Part shown: piece after piece, positions 1-7,118 of the stretch
Numbering within the stretch: position 1 is the stretch's first letter
Layout: each line of letters starts with the position of its first letter
Virus record (IMG/VR): IMGVR_UViG_2740892229_000001
Span: 1-7,118 of that record
Origin: a virus
Lineage: Duplodnaviria > Heunggongvirae > Uroviricota > Caudoviricetes
Length of the DNA: 7,118 nucleotides
Direction: 5' to 3' (one strand)
Notes under the pieces: generated by a model
Database searches by the model: none
Told to the model about the DNA's origin: nothing
The model's input: only the letters and a program-made list of their open reading frames with translations
Program-made: the position numbers and the translations under genes

Positions 1-54
1 GTCGCTCGTAACTAAACAGGAGCCGACTTGTTCTGATTATTGGAAATCTTCTTT

Positions 55-81
55 GCCCTCCAGTGTGAGGGCGATTTTTTT
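55..81 (+). terminator. Rho-independent terminator-like hairpin upstream of the first gene
   Basis: Stem GCCCTC (55-60) / GAGGGC (67-72) with 6-nt loop CAGTGT, followed by GATTTTTTT with a 7-T run (75-81). It sits immediately before the RBS GGAGGA (85-90) of the 94..1062 gene. Confidence 0.55.
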
Positions 82-93
82 GACGGAGGATAT

Positions 94-1062
94 ATGAGTG
101 AAGTAACAGATTTAGTTGTTATTGAAAAAGCAAATGCAATGACTGTATTTCAGTCTGCCGACCAGATTGAAGAAATCCTTCAAAAGGTTGAACGTGAAGT
201 TATGTCCTTTGTGCCTGATATCACAACGGCAAAGGGCAGAAAGGAGATCGCTTCTCTGGCGTATAAAGTTGCGCAGACGAAAACATATCTCGATGGTCTT
301 GGCAAAGACCTTGTTGCTGAACTGAAGGAAATTCCAAAGCTAATTGATGCCAACCGCAAGACAGTGCGTGATCGACTTGATGAGCTGAAAGCCAAGGCGC
401 GCCAGCCTCTTACTGATTATGAGGATGAACAGGCACGGATTAAAGCCGAAGAAGAAGCTAAGGCAGCAGCTGAAGCTCTCGCAAAGCAAATTGAGTCTGA
501 CCATGAAATAGCTATTTTGATGGATCGCGAATTTGACCGCCAAAGAGAAGAGGCAAGACTCAAAGCGGAGCAGGAAAAGCGAGAGCATGAAGAACGCTTA
601 AAAAGAGAAGCTGAAGAGAAAGCCAGAGCAGAAGCCGAAGCAAAGGCAAAAGCCGAAATTGAAGCAGCAGCAAGGCGAGAAGCAGAAGCTAAGGCCGCAG
701 CGGAACGTGCAGAGCGTGAACGCATTGAAGCCGAGCAACGAGCACAGCGCGAAGCAAAAGAGGCAGCAGAACGAGCTGAAAGAGAAAAGCAGGCAGCAAT
801 TGAAGCAGAACGCAGAAAAGCACAGGAGGAGGCTGAACGAATCCGTCGCGAGGCTGAAGCAAAAGAGCAAGCCAGAATAGCAGAAGAAAAAAGAATCAAG
901 GACGAAGAAGAGCGTAGAGCAAAGGATAAAGCTCACCGGAAAGAAGTAAATAACAAAATACTTGCTGACCTTATCAAGGTTGGTGCATCAGAAGATGTTG
1001 CTAAAAATATCATAACAGCCATCGTAAAAGGCGAAGTATTCGCAACAAAAATAACCTACTAA
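94..1062 (+). CDS. Hypothetical phage coiled-coil protein (globular N-terminus, long E/A/K/R-rich repeat region, short C-terminal domain)
   Basis: ORF-track frame 40..1062; preferred start is ATG 94 with RBS GGAGGA at 85-90, since the TTG start at 40 would read through the terminator hairpin at 55-81. The middle third is low-complexity (AEAEAKAKAE / REAEAKAAAERAERE type heptads). No family confidently recognised. Confidence 0.6.
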   Translation: MSEVTDLVVIEKANAMTVFQSADQIEEILQKVEREVMSFVPDITTAKGRKEIASLAYKVAQTKTYLDGLGKDLVAELKEIPKLIDANRKTVRDRLDELKAKARQPLTDYEDEQARIKAEEEAKAAAEALAKQIESDHEIAILMDREFDRQREEARLKAEQEKREHEERLKREAEEKARAEAEAKAKAEIEAAARREAEAKAAAERAERERIEAEQRAQREAKEAAERAEREKQAAIEAERRKAQEEAERIRREAEAKEQARIAEEKRIKDEEERRAKDKAHRKEVNNKILADLIKVGASEDVAKNIITAIVKGEVFATKITY

Positions 1063-1086
1063 TAAAACCAACATAAGGAACCACCC

Positions 1087-1218
1087 ATGATTTACGCAAT
1101 CGCGGGAGGCGCTCGCATGGGTGCCTTCCAACTAAATGAATCTTTACTTGAACGAATCACCCGTAAATTACGTGACGGATGGAAAAGAGTTGAGGTCTTA
1201 TTATGCGCAATGAAATAG
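1087..1218 (+). CDS. Small hypothetical protein (43 aa)
   Basis: ATG 1087 preceded by AAGGA (1075-1079) at 7-nt spacing; translation MIYAIAGGARMGAFQLNESLLERITRKLRDGWKRVEVLLCAMK; stop TAG 1216-1218. Below the ORF-track size cut-off; hand-translated. Confidence 0.4.
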   Translation: MIYAIAGGARMGAFQLNESLLERITRKLRDGWKRVEVLLCAMK

Positions 1219-1355
1219 CCATCAATCACCAGATACTTCGTGCTGCACAAAACAAAGCAGTAATAGCCAGATTTATTGGTGATTCCAAAATGTGGCTTGA
1301 AGCAAATAAAGCGATGAAATCAGCTATCAACCTTCCATGGTATCGCAGGAAATGA
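1203..1355 (+). CDS. Small hypothetical protein (50 aa)
   Basis: ATG 1203 preceded by GAGGT (1192-1196); translation MRNEIAINHQILRAAQNKAVIARFIGDSKMWLEANKAMKSAINLPWYRRK; stop TGA 1353-1355. Overlaps the previous small ORF by 16 nt. Hand-translated. Confidence 0.4.
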   Translation: MRNEIAINHQILRAAQNKAVIARFIGDSKMWLEANKAMKSAINLPWYRRK

Positions 1356-1522
1356 GTTTTACAGATAACTGGTCAGACGAAGAATTCATTCGTCAGATGA
1401 AAGAATTAATCGGTAACGAAGGAGATATTCATGTCACTTGCAACCACAGTGAAGGAGAGCAAGTTACAGAGGCGCATGTACACGCAGCAGGCGTTAATGT
1501 ATCGCCAGAAGGGAGATCGTGA
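1352..1522 (+). CDS. Hypothetical small protein (56 aa), uncertain
   Basis: Internal ATG 1352 of ORF-track ORF 1337..1522, forming an ATGA overlap with the stop of the 1203..1355 ORF. The Shine-Dalgarno is poorly spaced (AGGA 2-3 nt from the ATG), the C-terminal half is H/V/G-rich, and it overlaps 1431..1601 out of frame for 92 nt. Confidence 0.25.
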   Translation: MSFTDNWSDEEFIRQMKELIGNEGDIHVTCNHSEGEQVTEAHVHAAGVNVSPEGRS

Positions 1523-1601
1523 AGGTGTTCGCGTATTTTTGAATGCGGCAAAGACTGAAGTATTAAATCAGCGTTATTTCCTTGGGCCATGTCCATTCTG
1601 A
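1431..1601 (+). CDS. Small hypothetical protein (56 aa)
   Basis: Strong RBS GAAGGAG (1418-1424) 6 nt before ATG 1431; translation MSLATTVKESKLQRRMYTQQALMYRQKGDREGVRVFLNAAKTEVLNQRYFLGPCPF; stop TGA 1599-1601, 8 nt before the SSAP start. Not in the ORF track (below size cut-off); hand-translated. Confidence 0.5.
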   Translation: MSLATTVKESKLQRRMYTQQALMYRQKGDREGVRVFLNAAKTEVLNQRYFLGPCPF

Positions 1602-1609
1602 GGTGAATT

Positions 1610-2317
1610 ATGGATTTGAACAAATTCGATGAGCCATTCAGCCCTGAAGATATCGAATGGCGAATACAGCAAAGCGGTAAAACACGCGATGGCAAGGTGT
1701 GGGCTATGGTGCTGGCTTATGTCACGAACCGGGCAATCATGAAGCGCCTGGACGATGTTTGCGGCAAAGCAGGATGGCGCAATGAATACCGCGATATTCC
1801 CAACAACGGCGGAGTTGAATGCGGCATATCAATCAAGATTGATTCCGAATGGGTAACCAAATGGGATGCTGCTGAAAACACGCAGGTAGAAGCCGTCAAA
1901 GGTGGTCGTTCCGGTGCAATGAAGCGCGCTGCCGTTCAGTGGGGAATCGGTCGGTATCTGTATAACCTTGAGGAAGGTTTCGCACAAACATCTCTCGATA
2001 AAAAGCAGGGGTGGCACAGGGCAAAACTGAAGGATGGAACAGGGTTTTACTGGCTCCCTCCAACGCTGCCCGGCTGGGCAATCCCAGCATCAGATAACAA
2101 ACCATCACCAGAAAATACCAACCAGAAATCTCCATCGGTTGACTGCGAACAAATCCTGAAAGACTTCAGCGATTATGCATCGAAAGAAACTGATAAGAAA
2201 AAACTCATCGAGCGTTATCAGCGTGACTGGCAATTAATGGCTGGAAACGAGGAGGCGCAGGCTAAATGCGTTCAGGTAATGAACATCAGAGTTAACGAGC
2301 TAAAACAGGCGGCATAA
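1610..2317 (+). CDS. Rad52-superfamily single-strand annealing protein (Sak/Erf-like phage recombinase)
   Basis: 235-aa ORF with RBS GAGGTG at 1600-1605. Contains the segment KGGRSGAMKRAAVQWGIGRYLY, which matches my recollection of the conserved DNA-binding core of Rad52/Sak-type annealases. Its position directly upstream of ssb is typical of phage recombination modules. Family assignment is from memory, not a search. Confidence 0.75.
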   Translation: MDLNKFDEPFSPEDIEWRIQQSGKTRDGKVWAMVLAYVTNRAIMKRLDDVCGKAGWRNEYRDIPNNGGVECGISIKIDSEWVTKWDAAENTQVEAVKGGRSGAMKRAAVQWGIGRYLYNLEEGFAQTSLDKKQGWHRAKLKDGTGFYWLPPTLPGWAIPASDNKPSPENTNQKSPSVDCEQILKDFSDYASKETDKKKLIERYQRDWQLMAGNEEAQAKCVQVMNIRVNELKQAA

Positions 2318-2791
2318 ATGGCAAGCAGAGGCGTAAATAAGGTGATCATTATTGGTCGCCTTGGGCATGATCCAGAAATCAGATATTCACCATCAGGAAC
2401 GGCATTTGCAAACCTTACAGTTGCTACGTCAGAACAATGGCGTGATAAGCAAACTGGAGAGCAAAAGGAGCAGACGGAGTGGCACCGCGTGGTAATGAGC
2501 GGGAAACTGGCAGAAATTGCCAGCGAATATCTGCGAAAAGGCTCTGAGGTTTATCTTGAAGGCAAATTGCGGACAAGAAAATGGCAGGATCAAAGCGGAC
2601 AGGATCGGTTCACTACTGAAGTCATCGTGGGCGTTGGTGGAACTATGCAAATGATTGGTGGCAAGCAAGGAGGCAATGAACAGTCTTCACCTCAGCGAAA
2701 TAACGGTCAGCAACAAAGACAGCAATCTCAGCAGCATGGGAATCACAGCGAACCACCTATGAACTTCGACGATTCGGATATTCCGTTCTAG
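2318..2791 (+). CDS. ssb: Single-stranded DNA-binding protein (phage-encoded SSB)
   Basis: 157 aa. The N-terminal OB fold aligns closely to E. coli SSB ([70 protein letters not shown]), followed by a G/Q-rich linker and the acidic tail [12 protein letters not shown]. Start ATG 2318 directly abuts the SSAP stop (TAAATG). Confidence 0.95.
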
Positions 2792-2800
2792 GAGATGAAT

Positions 2801-3280
2801 ATGAAAATCTGCTCAAGATGCCATCAACAGAAGGAAGAAAGGGACTTTCAAATCAGAAGAGCATCCAGAGATGGATTAACTGCCGCTTGCCGGGCTTGCC
2901 TGGCTGAATACGACAAAGAACGCGCTGGATTGCCACATCGAGTATCAGCAAGGAGAGAATATCAATCATCGGAACGCGGAAGAGAACGGTGTAACGCAGC
3001 CAAAAAGCGGTTCATTCAGAGCAACCCATGGAAAAGAAAAGCCCACATCATTGTGGGTAATTTTTTGCGCGACGGTAAGCTAATCCGACCACCACAATGT
3101 GAGTGCTGCGGATCAGAATGTAAACCACAGGCGCACCACTGCGACTACAGCAAACCAACCGATGTGATGTGGCTCTGCAAGTCATGTCATGTCGAGTGGC
3201 ACAAACATAACAAACCTATCTACCCAGACGAGGAACCAGTAACTCTCCCCTTCCCTCGTCACGCTATTCACGCAATTTAA
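2801..3280 (+). CDS. Cys-rich HNH-like zinc-finger protein (putative HNH endonuclease-family protein)
   Basis: ORF-track frame 2795..3280; ATG 2801 preferred because AGGAG (2790-2794) is then 6 nt upstream. The C-terminal segment CECCGSECKPQAHHCDYSKPTDVMWLCKSCHVEWH fits the HNH beta-beta-alpha-metal pattern (CxxC ... HH ... D ... LCxxCH..H). The N-terminus has a second Cys cluster (CSRCH ... CRAC). Confidence 0.5.
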   Translation: MKICSRCHQQKEERDFQIRRASRDGLTAACRACLAEYDKERAGLPHRVSARREYQSSERGRERCNAAKKRFIQSNPWKRKAHIIVGNFLRDGKLIRPPQCECCGSECKPQAHHCDYSKPTDVMWLCKSCHVEWHKHNKPIYPDEEPVTLPFPRHAIHAI

Positions 3281-3293
3281 TCAGGAGAAAATC

Positions 3294-3587
3294 ATGCCAG
3301 CGCCTCTGTATGGTGCGGATGACCCGCGCCGCTGTTCCGGCAATTCCGTATCGGAGGTGCTGGATAAATTCAGAAAAAACTACGACCTGATAATGTCGCT
3401 ACCGCAGGAAACGAAAGAGGAAAAGGAATTTCGCCATTGTATATGGCTTGCAGAGAAAGAAGAACGCGAGCGAATTTACCAGACATCAATCCGACCATTC
3501 CGCAAAGCCACATATACCCACTTCCCTGAAATTGACCCGCGCCTGCGTAATTACCGCTCACGCTATGGCGCTATCAGTAATGACTGA
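3294..3587 (+). CDS. Hypothetical protein (97 aa)
   Basis: ORF-track ORF; RBS AGGAG (3283-3287) 6 nt before ATG 3294. Charged and hydrophilic; no family recognised. Confidence 0.6.
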
Positions 3588-3597
3588 GGAATTTACC

Positions 3598-3765
3598 ATG
3601 AGAGGACTTGCATACAATCCAGGAATTCTTCCGGCAGAAATGATTATTCGCCAACGCGTAAGGCCAATGCCATCGAGAGAGGAATTGCTTAAGAGAAATA
3701 GTTTCGGTTCTGTTAACGACAACAAATATCTGAATGCGATGTGGCGCAAAGGAGGCAACCAGTGA
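3598..3765 (+). CDS. Small hypothetical protein (55 aa)
   Basis: Internal ATG 3598 of ORF-track frame 3448..3765, chosen because it follows the upstream stop (3585-3587) and has GAGGA (3586-3590) at 7-nt spacing. Translation [55 protein letters not shown]. Confidence 0.5.
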
Positions 3766-4460
3766 GCAAGATTGACTATCAGGTACTGCGTGAGGCAGCA
3801 GTAGCAATTGAAACAGTAGCAACGCCTCAAAAATTGCTGGCATTTCGTATGAAAGTCACACCTCAGGTTGTGCTGGCATTGTTGGATGAACGGGAAAGAA
3901 ACCAGCAATACATCAAACGCCGCGACCAGGAGAACGAGGATATTGCGCTTACGGTTGGGAGGCTGCGCGTTGAGCTGGAAGGCAAAGACAGCAAAATAGC
4001 CAATCTTACCGCCGAACGCGATGCTCTTCGCGAAGGTGAGATAGGCGACGCCAGGCATAGCAACACACGGGCCGCAGCTGATATCTACTTCCAACTGGTC
4101 GAGGAGTGCGAAATTCCTGCTGGCGGATCTCTGGTCGAGTACGTTGACGATATGCGCGAGAAGCTGGAAGCCGCAGAGAAGCGCATTGCAGAACTGGAAG
4201 CACGGGAAATAAAACCAGCCAAAGGCGAAGTTCTTGTCGTTGTCTCTGGTTTTACTGGTTGCGGGAAAAGCGCCATTGCCGGGGAAATAGAAATTGCGAT
4301 GAAAGCTATTGGTGTGCCGGTTCAATGGACTAATGGCGATGCAGAAAAGCATATGACCGGCGCTGACTGGCTGACAGCGATTGAGATGTACAAACCAACT
4401 GTGCGCATCGTGGAAGTTAATGTGCCACGCGCCGCTGGCATTCGCATCAAAGGAGAGTGA
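3762..4460 (+). CDS. Coiled-coil phage protein, possibly Ead/Ea22-like, with a short alpha/beta C-terminal domain
   Basis: ORF-track frame 3741..4460; GTG 3762 preferred because AAAGGAGG (3748-3755) lies 6 nt upstream and it gives a GTGA overlap with the upstream stop. N-terminal [12 protein letters not shown] plus coiled-coil stretches ([39 protein letters not shown]) resemble, from memory, the Ea22 family of lambdoid accessory proteins. C-terminus carries a Walker-A-like string GFTGCGKS. Confidence 0.45.
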
Positions 4461-4461
4461 T

Positions 4462-4671
4462 ATGGCTATTGCCGCAAGTTACACCATGCATCTCTATTGT
4501 GACTGCCGCCAGTGTACGGAAGGTGTATATCCAGTGCCAGACTTCGGTGAGTATATCGGTACGTCATGGTCTGGTTGTGCAAAAGAGGCGCGCAAGGATG
4601 GCTGGCGAATAAGCAAAGACAAAACGCGTGCTTTTGCGCCCGGGCATAAAGTTTTGAGGATTAACAAATGA
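4462..4671 (+). CDS. Small Cys-cluster protein (69 aa), possible zinc-ribbon
   Basis: Internal ATG 4462 of ORF-track frame 4381..4671; AGGAG (4451-4455) 6 nt upstream; starts 1 nt after the upstream stop. Translation MAIAASYTMHLYCDCRQCTEG...SGCAKE...; CxCxxC plus a distal Cys and His. Confidence 0.5.
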   Translation: MAIAASYTMHLYCDCRQCTEGVYPVPDFGEYIGTSWSGCAKEARKDGWRISKDKTRAFAPGHKVLRINK

Positions 4672-5588
4672 CCACTATTACCAAAGAGCGACTGCTGACA
4701 ATCAAGCAGTGGCGCGAAACATACGGACCTGGTAGCAACGTTGTACTGCCAGCAGAAGAAGCGGAAGAACTGGCACGGATTGCTCTGGCAGCGCTGGAAG
4801 CTGAACCTGTTCTGTATCAGTCCTGCACTCGCCCCACTTGGAATAGCGGTGTTCCGTGGACGGAATGGAAAGAACGTAGTCGTGAGGGCTACGAAAACGA
4901 TTTGCGCTTTACAGACACGCCTGACCATGCCGGTTGGATAAACAAATGCCGAAAACTATATACCACTCCGCCAGTTCCTGTAATACAGGCTGATGTCGCG
5001 CAGGCAATTGAAAAACTCAAACGGAAATTAGTGGAATGCAATCGCTATAACTACTGCGCAGATGCAGTTAAGGGCGTTGAGTATGCCTGCCACGCTGCCA
5101 TGCTTCAGGGTAGCCAACCTGTAAGCCAAACTTACAAGTTTCCAGTTAATACACCTTGCCAGGATGCGCCAGCCCATATCTGGCTGCAAACAGCTGGAGT
5201 ATGGCCAGAAGATGGCGAGTTAAGCGAATTAACGTGGTGCAGCCACAATCAGCACCATGATGACACGCTATATGTTCGAGCTGACCTTGTGAATGGCAAC
5301 TATCCGGTAACTCCGGATGGTTGGATAAGCTGTAGTGAGCGAATGCCTGTAATTGGCGAGCTAAATTGGAGAACTAGTTTTCCTTTGCTGATTACGTGTG
5401 AGATCGGCGTTATACCTGCTTATTACGGCTTTGTAAGCATTAATGGTGAAAGACATTATGGCTTTATGGAGAGCTTTAAATACGGAGATGAGCACGGCAA
5501 CCACCCTCAAACTAATGAATATGGTCTGATTAGCAATGTAACCCACTGGATGCCGCTGCCAGAACCGCCGGAGCAGGATGGTGAATGA
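4668..5588 (+). CDS. DUF551-domain phage protein
   Basis: 306 aa; ATG 4668 gives an ATGA overlap with the upstream stop; GAGGA (4656-4660) 7 nt upstream. The C-terminal ~90 aa end in ...NVTHWMPLPEPPEQDGE, matching my recollection of the DUF551 signature (W-x-PLPEPP) common in lambdoid prophage accessory regions. The N-terminal ~200 aa is not recognised. Confidence 0.6.
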   Translation: MTTITKERLLTIKQWRETYGPGSNVVLPAEEAEELARIALAALEAEPVLYQSCTRPTWNSGVPWTEWKERSREGYENDLRFTDTPDHAGWINKCRKLYTTPPVPVIQADVAQAIEKLKRKLVECNRYNYCADAVKGVEYACHAAMLQGSQPVSQTYKFPVNTPCQDAPAHIWLQTAGVWPEDGELSELTWCSHNQHHDDTLYVRADLVNGNYPVTPDGWISCSERMPVIGELNWRTSFPLLITCEIGVIPAYYGFVSINGERHYGFMESFKYGDEHGNHPQTNEYGLISNVTHWMPLPEPPEQDGE

Positions 5589-5674
5589 TGCCGCCAGTTA
5601 AAGTTGTGATTATCACTTTGGTGATGATAGTGATTGCGAGAATCATGTCTGGTGAAATTGGGTGGATATGGTAA
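5588..5674 (+). CDS. Putative 28-aa hydrophobic micro-protein (single transmembrane helix)
   Basis: ATG 5588 overlaps the DUF551 stop (TGATG; an in-frame ATG at 5585 is also possible). Translation MPPVKVVIITLVMIVIARIMSGEIGWIW; stop TAA 5672-5674. Hand-translated; not in the ORF track. Confidence 0.3.
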   Translation: MPPVKVVIITLVMIVIARIMSGEIGWIW

Positions 5675-5721
5675 TGGCTAAGGCAGCAGCAGAGCGCAAC
5701 TAACAATCCTCGCACTAGCGG

Positions 5722-5734
5722 GGATTTCTTTTAT
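5722..5734. repeat. Left copy of a 13-bp direct repeat GGATTTCTTTTAT flanking the 5746..6546 gene
   Basis: Exact 13-mer GGATTTCTTTTAT at 5722-5734, repeated at 6550-6562; both copies are preceded by GCG(G). Confidence 0.5.
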
Positions 5735-5745
5735 ATGGGGATAAT

Positions 5746-6546
5746 ATGACCATCCACTTTCACGGCAGCCCAATATGGGGGGATGAGCATGCCCCTACAG
5801 ATATGCTGATTAAAGCCCTTTACCGTGATGGTGGGGCTTTTGTTTCATTTGCCAGACCAGAGCAGATGAAAAAGATTGCCATGTTCCCTTGTGATATACG
5901 CCTTGATAACGGCGCTTTTAGCGACTGGATGAAAGCATTAAAGAAAGGCACTCCGGTAGAGTGGAGTAAGAGGCGAGCAAAATTCTACGACTTTGTTGGG
6001 AAGTGGTTCAGCAGAATTGAATGGTTTCTTATACCTGACGTTATCGAAGGGACAGAGGCAGAAAACGACGAGCAGATTGAGTTGGTTCCTGATTGGCTAA
6101 AATCAAAAGCGGTTCCGGTCTGGCATACCGACGAATCAATTGAACGTCTTTTACGCCTTTCTGGCAAATTTGAATGGGTGGCGATTGGATGCTGCGGCCC
6201 ACACAGGCACATACGCTCTAAATGGTGGGAACAGAGAATGGATGAAGTTTTCACTGAGCTTTATATCAATCGTAATTTGAAAGTGAAAATTCATGGTCTT
6301 CGAATGCTCGACGTGAGAGTTCTTGGTATGTATCCGTTCGCCAGTGCGGATTCTACTAATGTTGCTGTTAACGTACCGAAGACAGAGAAGCGATTTCCTG
6401 AGATTACTGACAAACTGGCACGTACAGCTGTACTTCGCGCTGCTATTGAAAAGGTGCACCCGCCATCGATATCAGCATGGGTAGACAGAAAGATGAGAGA
6501 GCCGGCGCAAGCCGGTTTTTTATTTGAATTCACCGACGCCGCTTAA
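5746..6546 (+). CDS. TGT-fold (tRNA-guanine transglycosylase-like) protein, candidate DpdA-like DNA 7-deazaguanine transglycosylase
   Basis: 266-aa ORF, clearly coding. Motifs occur in the same order as the queuine-TGT barrel as I remember it: HFHGSPIWG (cf. TPCFMPVGT), FPCDIRLDNGAFS with Asp at 5905-5907 (cf. ILTDSGGFQ), FLIPDVIEG with Asp at 6037-6039 (cf. MIFDEC), WVAIGCCG from 6187 (cf. GYAVGGL), and a later ASADSTNV. The C-terminal CxCxxC...H zinc module of canonical TGT is absent. Functional call is inference only. Confidence 0.45.
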   Translation: MTIHFHGSPIWGDEHAPTDMLIKALYRDGGAFVSFARPEQMKKIAMFPCDIRLDNGAFSDWMKALKKGTPVEWSKRRAKFYDFVGKWFSRIEWFLIPDVIEGTEAENDEQIELVPDWLKSKAVPVWHTDESIERLLRLSGKFEWVAIGCCGPHRHIRSKWWEQRMDEVFTELYINRNLKVKIHGLRMLDVRVLGMYPFASADSTNVAVNVPKTEKRFPEITDKLARTAVLRAAIEKVHPPSISAWVDRKMREPAQAGFLFEFTDAA

Positions 6547-6549
6547 TGC

Positions 6550-6562
6550 GGATTTCTTTTAT
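6550..6562. repeat. Right copy of the 13-bp direct repeat GGATTTCTTTTAT
   Basis: Exact 13-mer at 6550-6562, 4 nt after the stop of the 5746..6546 gene and immediately before the terminator hairpin. Confidence 0.5.
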
Positions 6563-6565
6563 CTG

Positions 6566-6590
6566 AACTCGCTACGGCGAGTTTTGTTTT
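6566..6590 (+). terminator. Rho-independent terminator after the TGT-like gene
   Basis: Stem AACTCGC (6566-6572) / GCGAGTT (6577-6583), loop TACG, followed by TTGTTTT (6584-6590). Confidence 0.6.
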
Positions 6591-6603
6591 ATGGAGATGA
6601 TAA

Positions 6604-6771
6604 ATGCACTTCCGAGTCACAGGTGAATGGAATGGAGAGCCATTCAACAGAGTTATCGAAGCAGAGAACATCAACGACTGCTATGACCACTGGATGATAT
6701 GGGCGCAGATAGCACATGCAGAAGTAACCAATATTCGAATTGAAGAACTGAAAGAACACCAAGCCGCCTGA
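6604..6771 (+). CDS. Small hypothetical protein (55 aa) between the moron and xis
   Basis: RBS GGAGA (6593-6597) 6 nt before ATG 6604; translation MHFRVTGEWNGEPFNRVIEAENINDCYDHWMIWAQIAHAEVTNIRIEELKEHQAA; stop TGA 6769-6771. Hand-translated; not in the ORF track. Confidence 0.5.
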   Translation: MHFRVTGEWNGEPFNRVIEAENINDCYDHWMIWAQIAHAEVTNIRIEELKEHQAA

Positions 6772-6784
6772 TGGCGGTTTTTTC
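6763..6784 (+). terminator. Rho-independent terminator overlapping the stop of the 55-aa gene
   Basis: Stem GCCGCC (6763-6768) / GGCGG (6773-6777), loop TGAT containing the stop codon, followed by TTTTTT (6778-6783). Confidence 0.55.
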
Positions 6785-6828
6785 TTGCCTGATTTACAGG
6801 TTCGATTCCCTATTCGGAGATAGCACTC

Positions 6829-7029
6829 ATGCAACACGAACTACAGCCTGATTCACTGGTTGATTTGAAATTCATCATGGCCGATACTGGCTTCGGTAAG
6901 ACCTTCATCTATGACCGGATTAAGTCCGGCGACCTGCCTAAAGCCAAAGTTATCCACGGGCGAGCAAGATGGTTATATCGTGATCATTGTGAATTCAAAA
7001 ATAAGCTCTTAAGCCGCGCCAATGGGTAA
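6829..7029 (+). CDS. xis: AlpA-family excisionase / DNA-binding protein (Xis-like)
   Basis: 66 aa; RBS GGAGA (6816-6820). LVDLKFIMADTGFGKTFIYDRIKSGDLPKAKVIHGRARWLYRDHCEF fits the AlpA/Vis-type winged-helix pattern (helix with TG, IY..IK.G.LPK, GR..W...D). Position at the 3' end of a lambdoid early-left operon, with a further ORF opening at 7022 that overlaps its stop. Confidence 0.7.
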   Translation: MQHELQPDSLVDLKFIMADTGFGKTFIYDRIKSGDLPKAKVIHGRARWLYRDHCEFKNKLLSRANG

Positions 7030-7118
7030 AATAGCGGGTAAAATATTTCTCACATCTAAAAAACACCATTCCAATCAATCCCCTGCCGCGTCAAGTAGAT
7101 GTCTGCAGGGGACACCAT

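Follow-up and report, generated by a model that had tools for sequence, protein, structure and literature searches.

A DpdA-like gene flanked by a 13-bp repeat splits a conserved two-hairpin linker of lambdoid prophages

The locus and its 13-bp repeat

We analyzed a stretch of 7,118 nucleotides of viral DNA (IMG/VR record IMGVR_UViG_2740892229_000001, positions 1 to 7,118; hereafter the window, with all coordinates counted from its first nucleotide), which represents the early-left (exo-xis) part of a lambdoid prophage integrated at argW/dsdC in Escherichia coli 2013C-4991. The subject of this analysis is a gene of the right half of the window that codes for a DpdA-like protein of the TGT superfamily, together with the two identical 13-mers that enclose it and the hairpins among which it lies (Table 1). 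The 13-mer GGATTTCTTTTAT occurs exactly twice in the window, both times on the + strand and, as a first-pass annotation of this DNA had already pointed out, at the two borders of the gene. The ATG lies 11 nt past the end of the left copy, and the right copy lies 3 nt past the stop codon. The gaps of 71 and 57 nt reported around the gene are correct, provided that a 28-amino-acid open reading frame (ORF) at 5588-5674 is accepted. When one mismatch is allowed (ATG versus CTG), the repeat lengthens to 16 nt, and none of 200 shuffles contained two matches to the repeat pattern.

Rather than standing by itself as a junction sequence, the 13-mer is made up of the end of the 3' arm of a terminator-like hairpin (HP1) and the T-tail of that hairpin, a fact that the first-pass annotation had overlooked, as it had a third hairpin located within the 3' end of the ORF. 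The last GG of a weak hairpin around the stop codon is, in turn, the start of the right copy.

Table 1. Features of the dpdA-like locus, in window coordinates (RBS, ribosome-binding site; aa, amino acids)
Feature	Position	Strand	Remarks
TAA opening the linker	5701..5703	+	Stop codon of the upstream gene in most relatives; here it closes a 9-codon ORF (ATG at 5674) that looks like a remnant
Terminator-like hairpin HP1, AATCCTCGC-ACTA-GCGGGGATT	5705..5726	+	9 pairs, loop of 4, T-rich tail
Left 13-mer copy, GGATTTCTTTTAT	5722..5734	+	Last 5 nt of the HP1 3' arm plus T-tail
Inserted cassette, 815 bp	5735..6549	+	Absent from the isogenic relatives L058 and L080
GGGGA, likely RBS of the inserted gene	5737..5741	+	Within the leader (5735-5745)
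DpdA-like (TGT-superfamily) ORF, 266 aa	5746..6546	+	phrog_887, "queuine tRNA-ribosyltransferase," E 5e-102
Strong hairpin plus T6 in the 3' end of the ORF	6496..6521	+	Encodes EPAQAGFLF; -17.2 kcal/mol, z -5.1
Weak 4-bp hairpin, CCGC-TTAAT-GCGG	6539..6551	+	Stop codon in the loop; -6.8 kcal/mol, z -1.6, not significant
Right 13-mer copy	6550..6562	+	Flank TTAATGC/GGATTTC the same in all cassette loci from exact-13-mer scans
Terminator-like hairpin HP2 plus T-tail	6565..6590	+	Homologous to predicted lambda t4; part of the recipient linker, not of the cassette
RBS GGAG plus homologue of lambda orf55 (lambdap35), phrog_676	6593..6771	+	Gene normally found after the linker
Terminator-like hairpin after orf55	6761..6780	+	Homologous to predicted lambda t5

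A conserved linker with two terminator-like hairpins

In phages without the dpdA-like gene, HP1 and HP2 are contiguous (TAACAATCCTCGCACTCGCGGGGATTTCTTTTAT CTGAACTCGCTACGGCGAGTTTTGTTTTATGGAG) and belong to a 71-nt linker that extends from the upstream stop codon to the base preceding the downstream start codon. Its order is constant: the stop codon TAA of the upstream gene, HP1 with its T-tail GGATTTCTTTTAT, HP2 with its own T-tail, and the RBS of the next gene. The linker always starts with TAACAATCC, directly after the ends of unrelated upstream genes, of which at least nine were found across phages, along with at least six different downstream genes. Of 5426 complete E. coli genomes, 2299 (about 42%) carry it, with a total of 3341 occurrences, and it was also identified in 260 phage records. 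Because it lies between so many unrelated modules and is widespread in both genomes and phages, we take it to be a conserved boundary or linker sequence, a short stretch at a gene border with nonhomologous modules on either side, and it behaves as a boundary sequence of the kind proposed for lambdoid mosaicism. The first-pass annotation had offered a mosaic junction sequence as one explanation of the repeat, and this part stands, with the 13-mer lying inside the linker.

HP1 (5705-5726) has a predicted energy of -13.1 kcal/mol (z -4.5) and is homologous to the predicted lambda hairpin t3. The clean hairpin noticed earlier after the gene was found again at 6565-6584, followed by TTTTGTTTTAT, with -11.9 kcal/mol and a z of -3.95. 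A GC-rich hairpin followed by a T tract, the pattern of rho-independent terminators, was seen in HP1, HP2, and the hairpins at 6496-6521 and 6761-6780. For lambda, Bloch et al. (2014) predicted the hairpins t3, t4, and t5 of the exo-xis region as terminators (PMC4195576).

Upstream of HP1, the window contains a 9-codon ORF at 5674-5703 (MAKAAAERN and a stop codon) that overlaps the stop codon of the 28-amino-acid ORF at 5588-5674 and ends at the TAA of the linker. The same AAERN-TAA ending is carried by longer genes of other phages (L058, L080, and L118), and the short ORF looks like the remnant of a truncated upstream gene.

Empty sites and the inserted cassette

Sites without the gene hold a single copy of the 13-mer in Sf6, in HK140, and in more than 70 IMG/VR loci; in lambda, the linker is found between ea8.5 and orf55, and the 13-mer has one mismatch. 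Two of the IMG/VR loci (L058 and L080) have the upstream and downstream flanks of the window itself, with the gene absent. Aligned to them, the window matches from 5546 to 5737 and then from 6550 onwards, and the two matches overlap by 16 nt in the subject. It follows from these alignments that the 828-bp indel is made of an 815-bp cassette and one duplicated 13-mer. The first-pass annotation had proposed an independent acquisition and had asked whether relatives lacking the gene keep one copy of the repeat at the junction; both the single-copy empty sites (Sf6, HK140, L058, L080, and, with its mismatch, lambda) and the overlap of the L058 and L080 alignments by the 13- to 16-nt repeat support that proposal. 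The cassette is compact, consisting of an 11-nt leader (5735-5745) with the RBS, the dpdA-type gene, and 3 nt past the stop codon, so that the leader is the only 5' noncoding DNA that it brings.

Distribution and relatives of the cassette

We collected 35 sequences (34 fetched loci plus the window) with at least one cassette junction, 25 of which contain both. The spacing between the repeats is 828 bp in 25 of these 25, the window included, and the junction sequences are the same. The neighbors vary, with at least eight distinct upstream and at least five distinct downstream flanks. The cassette is present in 82 of the 5426 complete E. coli genomes (about 1.5%), at 95 to 100% identity, and the only sequenced phage in which we found it was HK106, where the right copy of the repeat has drifted to GGGTTTCTTTTAT. 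As all copies of the cassette have one junction pair, they point to one insertion event, and the distribution fits a single origin followed by spread via recombination in the flanking linker and neighboring genes. The phage of the window encodes a Rad52-type recombinase, a class of enzymes shown to promote exchange and to drive mosaic formation on short or diverged homology (PMC3945230). Our best reading, which we consider likely, is that one insertion duplicated 13 bp of its target and that the cassette was later spread by recombination within the linker.

The nearest relatives of the gene share 77% DNA identity and 80 to 86% protein identity with it, and the likeness is limited to the ORF (5746-6542); DNA similarity begins at 5746, or at 5737 in the case of PEAT2. 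In these relatives, the dpdA-like gene sits in tightly overlapping operons, in two cases directly after a gene for a YhhQ/Vut_1 preQ0 transporter. Pantoea-type relatives (L340 and L345) carry it as a stand-alone unit after a terminator. A protein-based search for a donor locus provided only one Pantoea relative, with 70% identity.

Candidate traces of the origin of the cassette were discarded. The leader GGGGATAATATGA resembles the 3' end of a yhhQ-like gene (GGGGATGAAGTGA in PEAT2), and the T-tail before the gene could have been native to the donor (compare TTTCTTTATATGAGG in the Pantoea locus L340), but both similarities are explicable by constraints on the RBS and the T tract, and we rely on neither. 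The hit H145 appeared to show the 3' end of the cassette in an alternative context and is a deletion derivative. In the prophage L280 (NZ_OZ040950.1, 2430-2590), a deletion has fused a truncated DUF2737 gene with the final 88 nt of the dpdA cassette; therefore, loss of the cassette can occur through deletions independent of the 13-bp repeats.

The DpdA-like protein

The protein of the window is 98.5% identical to HK106 gp29 (YP_007151699) and 57 to 58% identical to its counterparts in Salmonella phage 7-11 and close relatives. It had no match in Pfam, NCBIfam, PADLOC, or PDB sequences, profile searches included, and its proposed membership in the TGT superfamily is supported solely by PHROGs and by fold comparison, in which a TGT-type TIM-barrel fold was found. 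Hutinet et al. (2019) list the HK106 protein as DpdA, within a "DpdA-only" group, and suggest that DpdA-only phages use the preQ0 of the host (PMC6884629). The gene of the window is, by prediction, a "DpdA-only" 7-deazaguanine DNA transglycosylase, and its likely role would be the insertion of host-made preQ0, a 7-deazaguanine, into phage DNA.

The window departs from the RefSeq sequence of the host genome at a single site, the G-run at 5777-5782 inside this gene. The six G residues of the window give the intact 266-amino-acid ORF, whereas the five of RefSeq produce a frameshift, and PGAP calls a 256-amino-acid protein from the ATG at 5775. Six G residues are also present in the other cassette copy of that genome. 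Either the assembly is in error at this homopolymer or the frameshift is real.

Transcription of the dpdA-like gene

Morons of lambdoid phages were reportedly described by Juhala et al. and by Hendrix et al. in 2000. The first-pass annotation considered the cassette to be such an element, a promoter-gene-terminator unit, which in its classical form would be autonomous, with a promoter in 5675-5745 and a terminator of its own, and would be expressed from the repressed prophage to the benefit of the lysogen. Among the moron features given in a review (PMC3594210), the one that we found is the extra DNA between genes that are adjacent in relatives (Sf6, HK140, lambda, L058, and L080). In PHROGs, the family is also placed in the category "moron, auxiliary metabolic gene and host takeover," the hairpin plus T6 at the 3' end of the ORF could be a terminator belonging to the gene, and in the Pantoea-type loci L340 and L345 the gene stands alone after a terminator. 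However, a crude consensus scan detected no sigma-70-like site on the + strand near 5589-5745, and only 11 nt of cassette DNA precede the ATG. The terminator attributed to the gene (the hairpin at 6566-6590 of the first pass, 6565-6590 here) turned out to be that of the recipient, as it is present at the empty sites, in lambda, and in about 2300 E. coli genomes. The G+C content of the cassette (0.44 to 0.47) is not distinct from that of the flanks (0.44 to 0.52), and an enzyme that modifies phage DNA would be expected to act in lytic growth. Taken with the coding nature of the internal hairpin described below, these features make a classical moron unlikely.

The internal hairpin (6496-6521) has a stem that is unchanged in the 77 to 86% identical relatives and a loop with synonymous changes only. 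In the closest relatives, the stem is conserved coding sequence (EPAQAGFLFEF) and overlapping genes follow directly; the equivalent position in PEAT2 is occupied by a true terminator whose loop contains the stop codon. In the cassette, this hairpin may be a terminator or attenuator of its own or a coding feature only, and the C-terminal tail of DpdA may have evolved by read-through of a terminator.

Read-through from pL is probable, because no promoter was detected for the gene itself, which has the terminator-like HP1 in front. The prophage of the window contains an N gene, and the same operon of BTP1 includes, in tight packing, a dpdA gene of another lineage. Judging from this arrangement, the gene is probably expressed from pL under N antitermination as part of the early lytic program, and it would be read early after induction or infection.

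Origin of the 13-bp duplication

In the ancestor, the 815-bp cassette would have landed between the two hairpins, giving the order HP1-13-mer, cassette, 13-mer-HP2, and the 13 bp at the end of HP1 would have been duplicated during the landing. The simplest reading of the duplication would be a pair of staggered crossovers flanking the T-tail, one to each side, which could have happened either one after the other or together, the latter with two recipient copies or through a circular intermediate. Afterwards, homologous recombination in the linker halves beside the cassette and in the neighboring genes would have carried it from one lambdoid prophage to others.

Novel joints occur within or next to the linker at several positions, and crossovers inside identical sequence leave no trace. 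Another module was joined at the 5' edge of the 13-mer in the L044 type (19 loci), right after the 13-mer in L240, and 5 nt after it in L119 and L266, while the joint of L244 is 2 nt after the 13-mer downstream of the cassette. Further joints lie just before HP2 (a class of 10 loci) and after the HP2 stem (L029 and L218). Because joints of other modules also fall in the T-tail or beside it, a transposase is an unlikely source of the duplication. Two variants of the left flank of the linker were seen with L289 (~10340-10420) and L287 (~13000-13080): in one, a hairpin CCCGC-CGAGT-GCGGG is followed by TTTTCTTTTATCT and HP2 (9 loci), and in the other, an unrelated multi-gene module is joined immediately before HP2 (10 loci).

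Several points weigh against the reading that we prefer, that of one insertion with duplication of the target, later spread, and early lytic use of the gene. The searches revealed no donor from which the mechanism and the polarity of the event could be reconstructed. No near-identical copy of the cassette with another left junction was found in IMG/VR or in the GTDB representative genomes, and the JGI metagenomes yielded only two unrelated chance matches to an alternative left junction. We considered the 5' edge of the 13-mer as a hotspot of breakpoints, but this is unproven, as the scan that gave the 5'-edge joints selected for that position, and an unbiased, HP2-anchored sample shows several positions. 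Covariation analysis of HP1 and HP2 gave 94.8% of cells paired with no compensatory change, the sequences being too conserved, and the terminators are predicted only. The promoter scan misses weak or activator-dependent promoters. Finally, phage 7-11, the 58% relative, carries dADG on only about 0.02% of G (PMC6884629).

An alternative origin of the repeat is a transposase-like or site-specific recombinase acting in trans, whose staggered cut at the T-tail would leave a 13-bp target-site duplication and make the linker a dedicated site for cassette capture. Arguments in its favor are an exact 13-bp direct repeat around an insert with precise ends on both sides and the joining of several unrelated modules at this 13-mer or beside it. 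On the other hand, the cassette has no terminal inverted repeats joining its ends, no second ORF, and no recombinase gene, and so does not have the features of a transposon; no other cargo with a duplicated 13-mer was seen at the site among the junction classes examined; and a single junction pair is found in all copies, while the breakpoints in the linker fall at several positions. We find this alternative improbable. Still less credit is due to the broader proposal that a specific process uses the T-tail between the hairpins as a preferred capture site for single-gene cassettes, duplicating 13 bp each time. That process might consist of breaks directed by the terminators or hairpins or of the action of a trans-acting nuclease or recombinase; if this very doubtful proposal were true, a ubiquitous lambdoid linker would be an integron-like docking site for accessory genes.

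The polarity could also be the reverse, with the cassette arrangement ancestral and the empty linker generated by deletion between the 13-mers. Direct repeats of 13 bp can mediate precise deletion, and L280 is a deletion derivative without most of the cassette. Nevertheless, the uninterrupted linker is about 40 times more common (3341 versus 84 places) and is found in far more diverse phages, lambda included; the closest relatives of the gene are in unrelated contexts and other genera; and the repeats would still require an origin. We regard a reversal as highly improbable.

The last alternative, a chance match between two T-rich intergenic stretches, starts from the fact that some identical 13-mer pair is present in about 45% of Markov-simulated windows of this size (7.1 kb; mean, 0.8), but the alignments of the empty sites have refuted it: with a single 13-mer in relatives that lack the gene and an indel of exactly 828 bp, both copies derive from one sequence. 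An identical 13-mer common to these two particular gaps has an expectation of about 5e-5, and chance does not account for the placement; the first-pass annotation had considered the repeat alone weak and its placement notable.

Comparison with known systems

The insertion that we propose resembles the morons of lambdoid phages in being a single extra gene, horizontally acquired, located between genes adjacent in relatives, and found in varied backgrounds. It differs from them in that no promoter was detected, the terminator downstream is that of the recipient, and the GC content is not distinct; moreover, the gene lies in the N-antiterminated early-left operon and is not obviously expressed from the repressed prophage. 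Like the boundary sequences at lambdoid gene borders, as credited in a passage of PMC3029335 to Clark et al. (2001) for HK620, the linker is short and conserved, runs from stop codon to RBS between nonhomologous modules, and would provide homology for exchange. Even so, none of the "bsq" features in the stretch of the Sf6 record that we inspected corresponds to the linker, and it consists of two tandem terminator-like hairpins, split here by an insertion with a 13-bp duplication beyond any use as a crossover point.

Compared with lambda itself, HP1, HP2, and the hairpin following orf55 differ from t3, t4, and t5 only by point changes and keep their positions relative to orf55; however, t3 and t4 are contiguous in lambda and 828 bp apart in the window, with dpdA between them. 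The window also resembles the DpdA-only group, as its protein is nearly that of the HK106 member (98.5%) and it contains no preQ0 synthesis genes, although the insertion architecture is not described in PMC6884629. Unlike the relatives PEAT2 and L282, it is missing the gene for the YhhQ/Vut_1 transporter directly upstream.

This is an ordinary but well-resolved gene gain in a lambdoid accessory region, and it leaves current views of phage mosaicism unchanged. It is one of the rare acquisitions that are fully resolved, with both junctions, the 13-bp duplication, and isogenic empty sites all visible. It also corrects a point of annotation logic, as terminator-like hairpins adjoining an accessory gene need not be its own. 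From a dpdA gene that stands alone in the pL operon after a terminator, one would predict N-dependent expression in early lytic growth and partial 7-deazaguanine modification of phage DNA from the preQ0 of the host.

Genomic setting of the window

Apart from one 1-nt difference, the window is the same as positions 5305519-5312635 (minus strand) of NZ_CP027355.1, from E. coli strain 2013C-4991, and cII, the repressor gene, and N are located upstream of it in the same record. It codes for cIII, kil, a Rad52-family recombinase, SSB, an unannotated HNH-type endonuclease ORF, abc2, a DUF2737 protein, Ead/Ea22, a DUF551/EaA protein, and the dpdA-like gene, followed on the right by the homologue of lambda orf55, a TorI-type excisionase, and an attR core adjoining dsdC. 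The same genome contains a second prophage (L281; NZ_CP027355.1, 409633-417447), adjoining sbcB, whose early-left region is identical to that of the window: the protein accessions from Rad52 to DUF551 are the same and the cassette is 100% identical, with a different integrase and attachment module. This suggests a recent exchange between the two coresident prophages.

The first-pass annotation had described the genes from 1087 to 5674 as joined by overlaps or gaps of 13 nt or less. The packing is roughly as tight as that, except that the RefSeq annotation leaves 75 nt between 1355 and 1431 and 41 nt between 3765 and 3807 without a gene and does not include the ORF at 2795-3280. That ORF (+ strand, 161 amino acids) is rich in cysteine and has an HNH-like motif, and it matches PHROG 2340, "endonuclease," with an E value of 2e-48; without it, RefSeq shows a 502-nt gap from ssb to abc2. 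From these features, its product may be a free-standing homing-type endonuclease. Positions 4668-5588 (+ strand) form a single uninterrupted ORF of 306 amino acids with a C-terminal DUF551, which RefSeq gives as a pseudogene fragment and a separate DUF551 gene. After kil, two ORFs overlap in different frames (1352-1522 and 1431-1601, + strand), likely no more than one of which is real; the ATGA overlap placed at 1352 in the first pass uses the former, whereas RefSeq annotates the latter, which has a match to PHROG 1723. The sole Rfam match in the window was to STnc130, an enterobacterial small RNA, at 6752-6879 on the - strand; it is below threshold (26 bits versus a gathering score of 55; E value, 0.31) and spans the orf55-xis intergenic region on the opposite strand.

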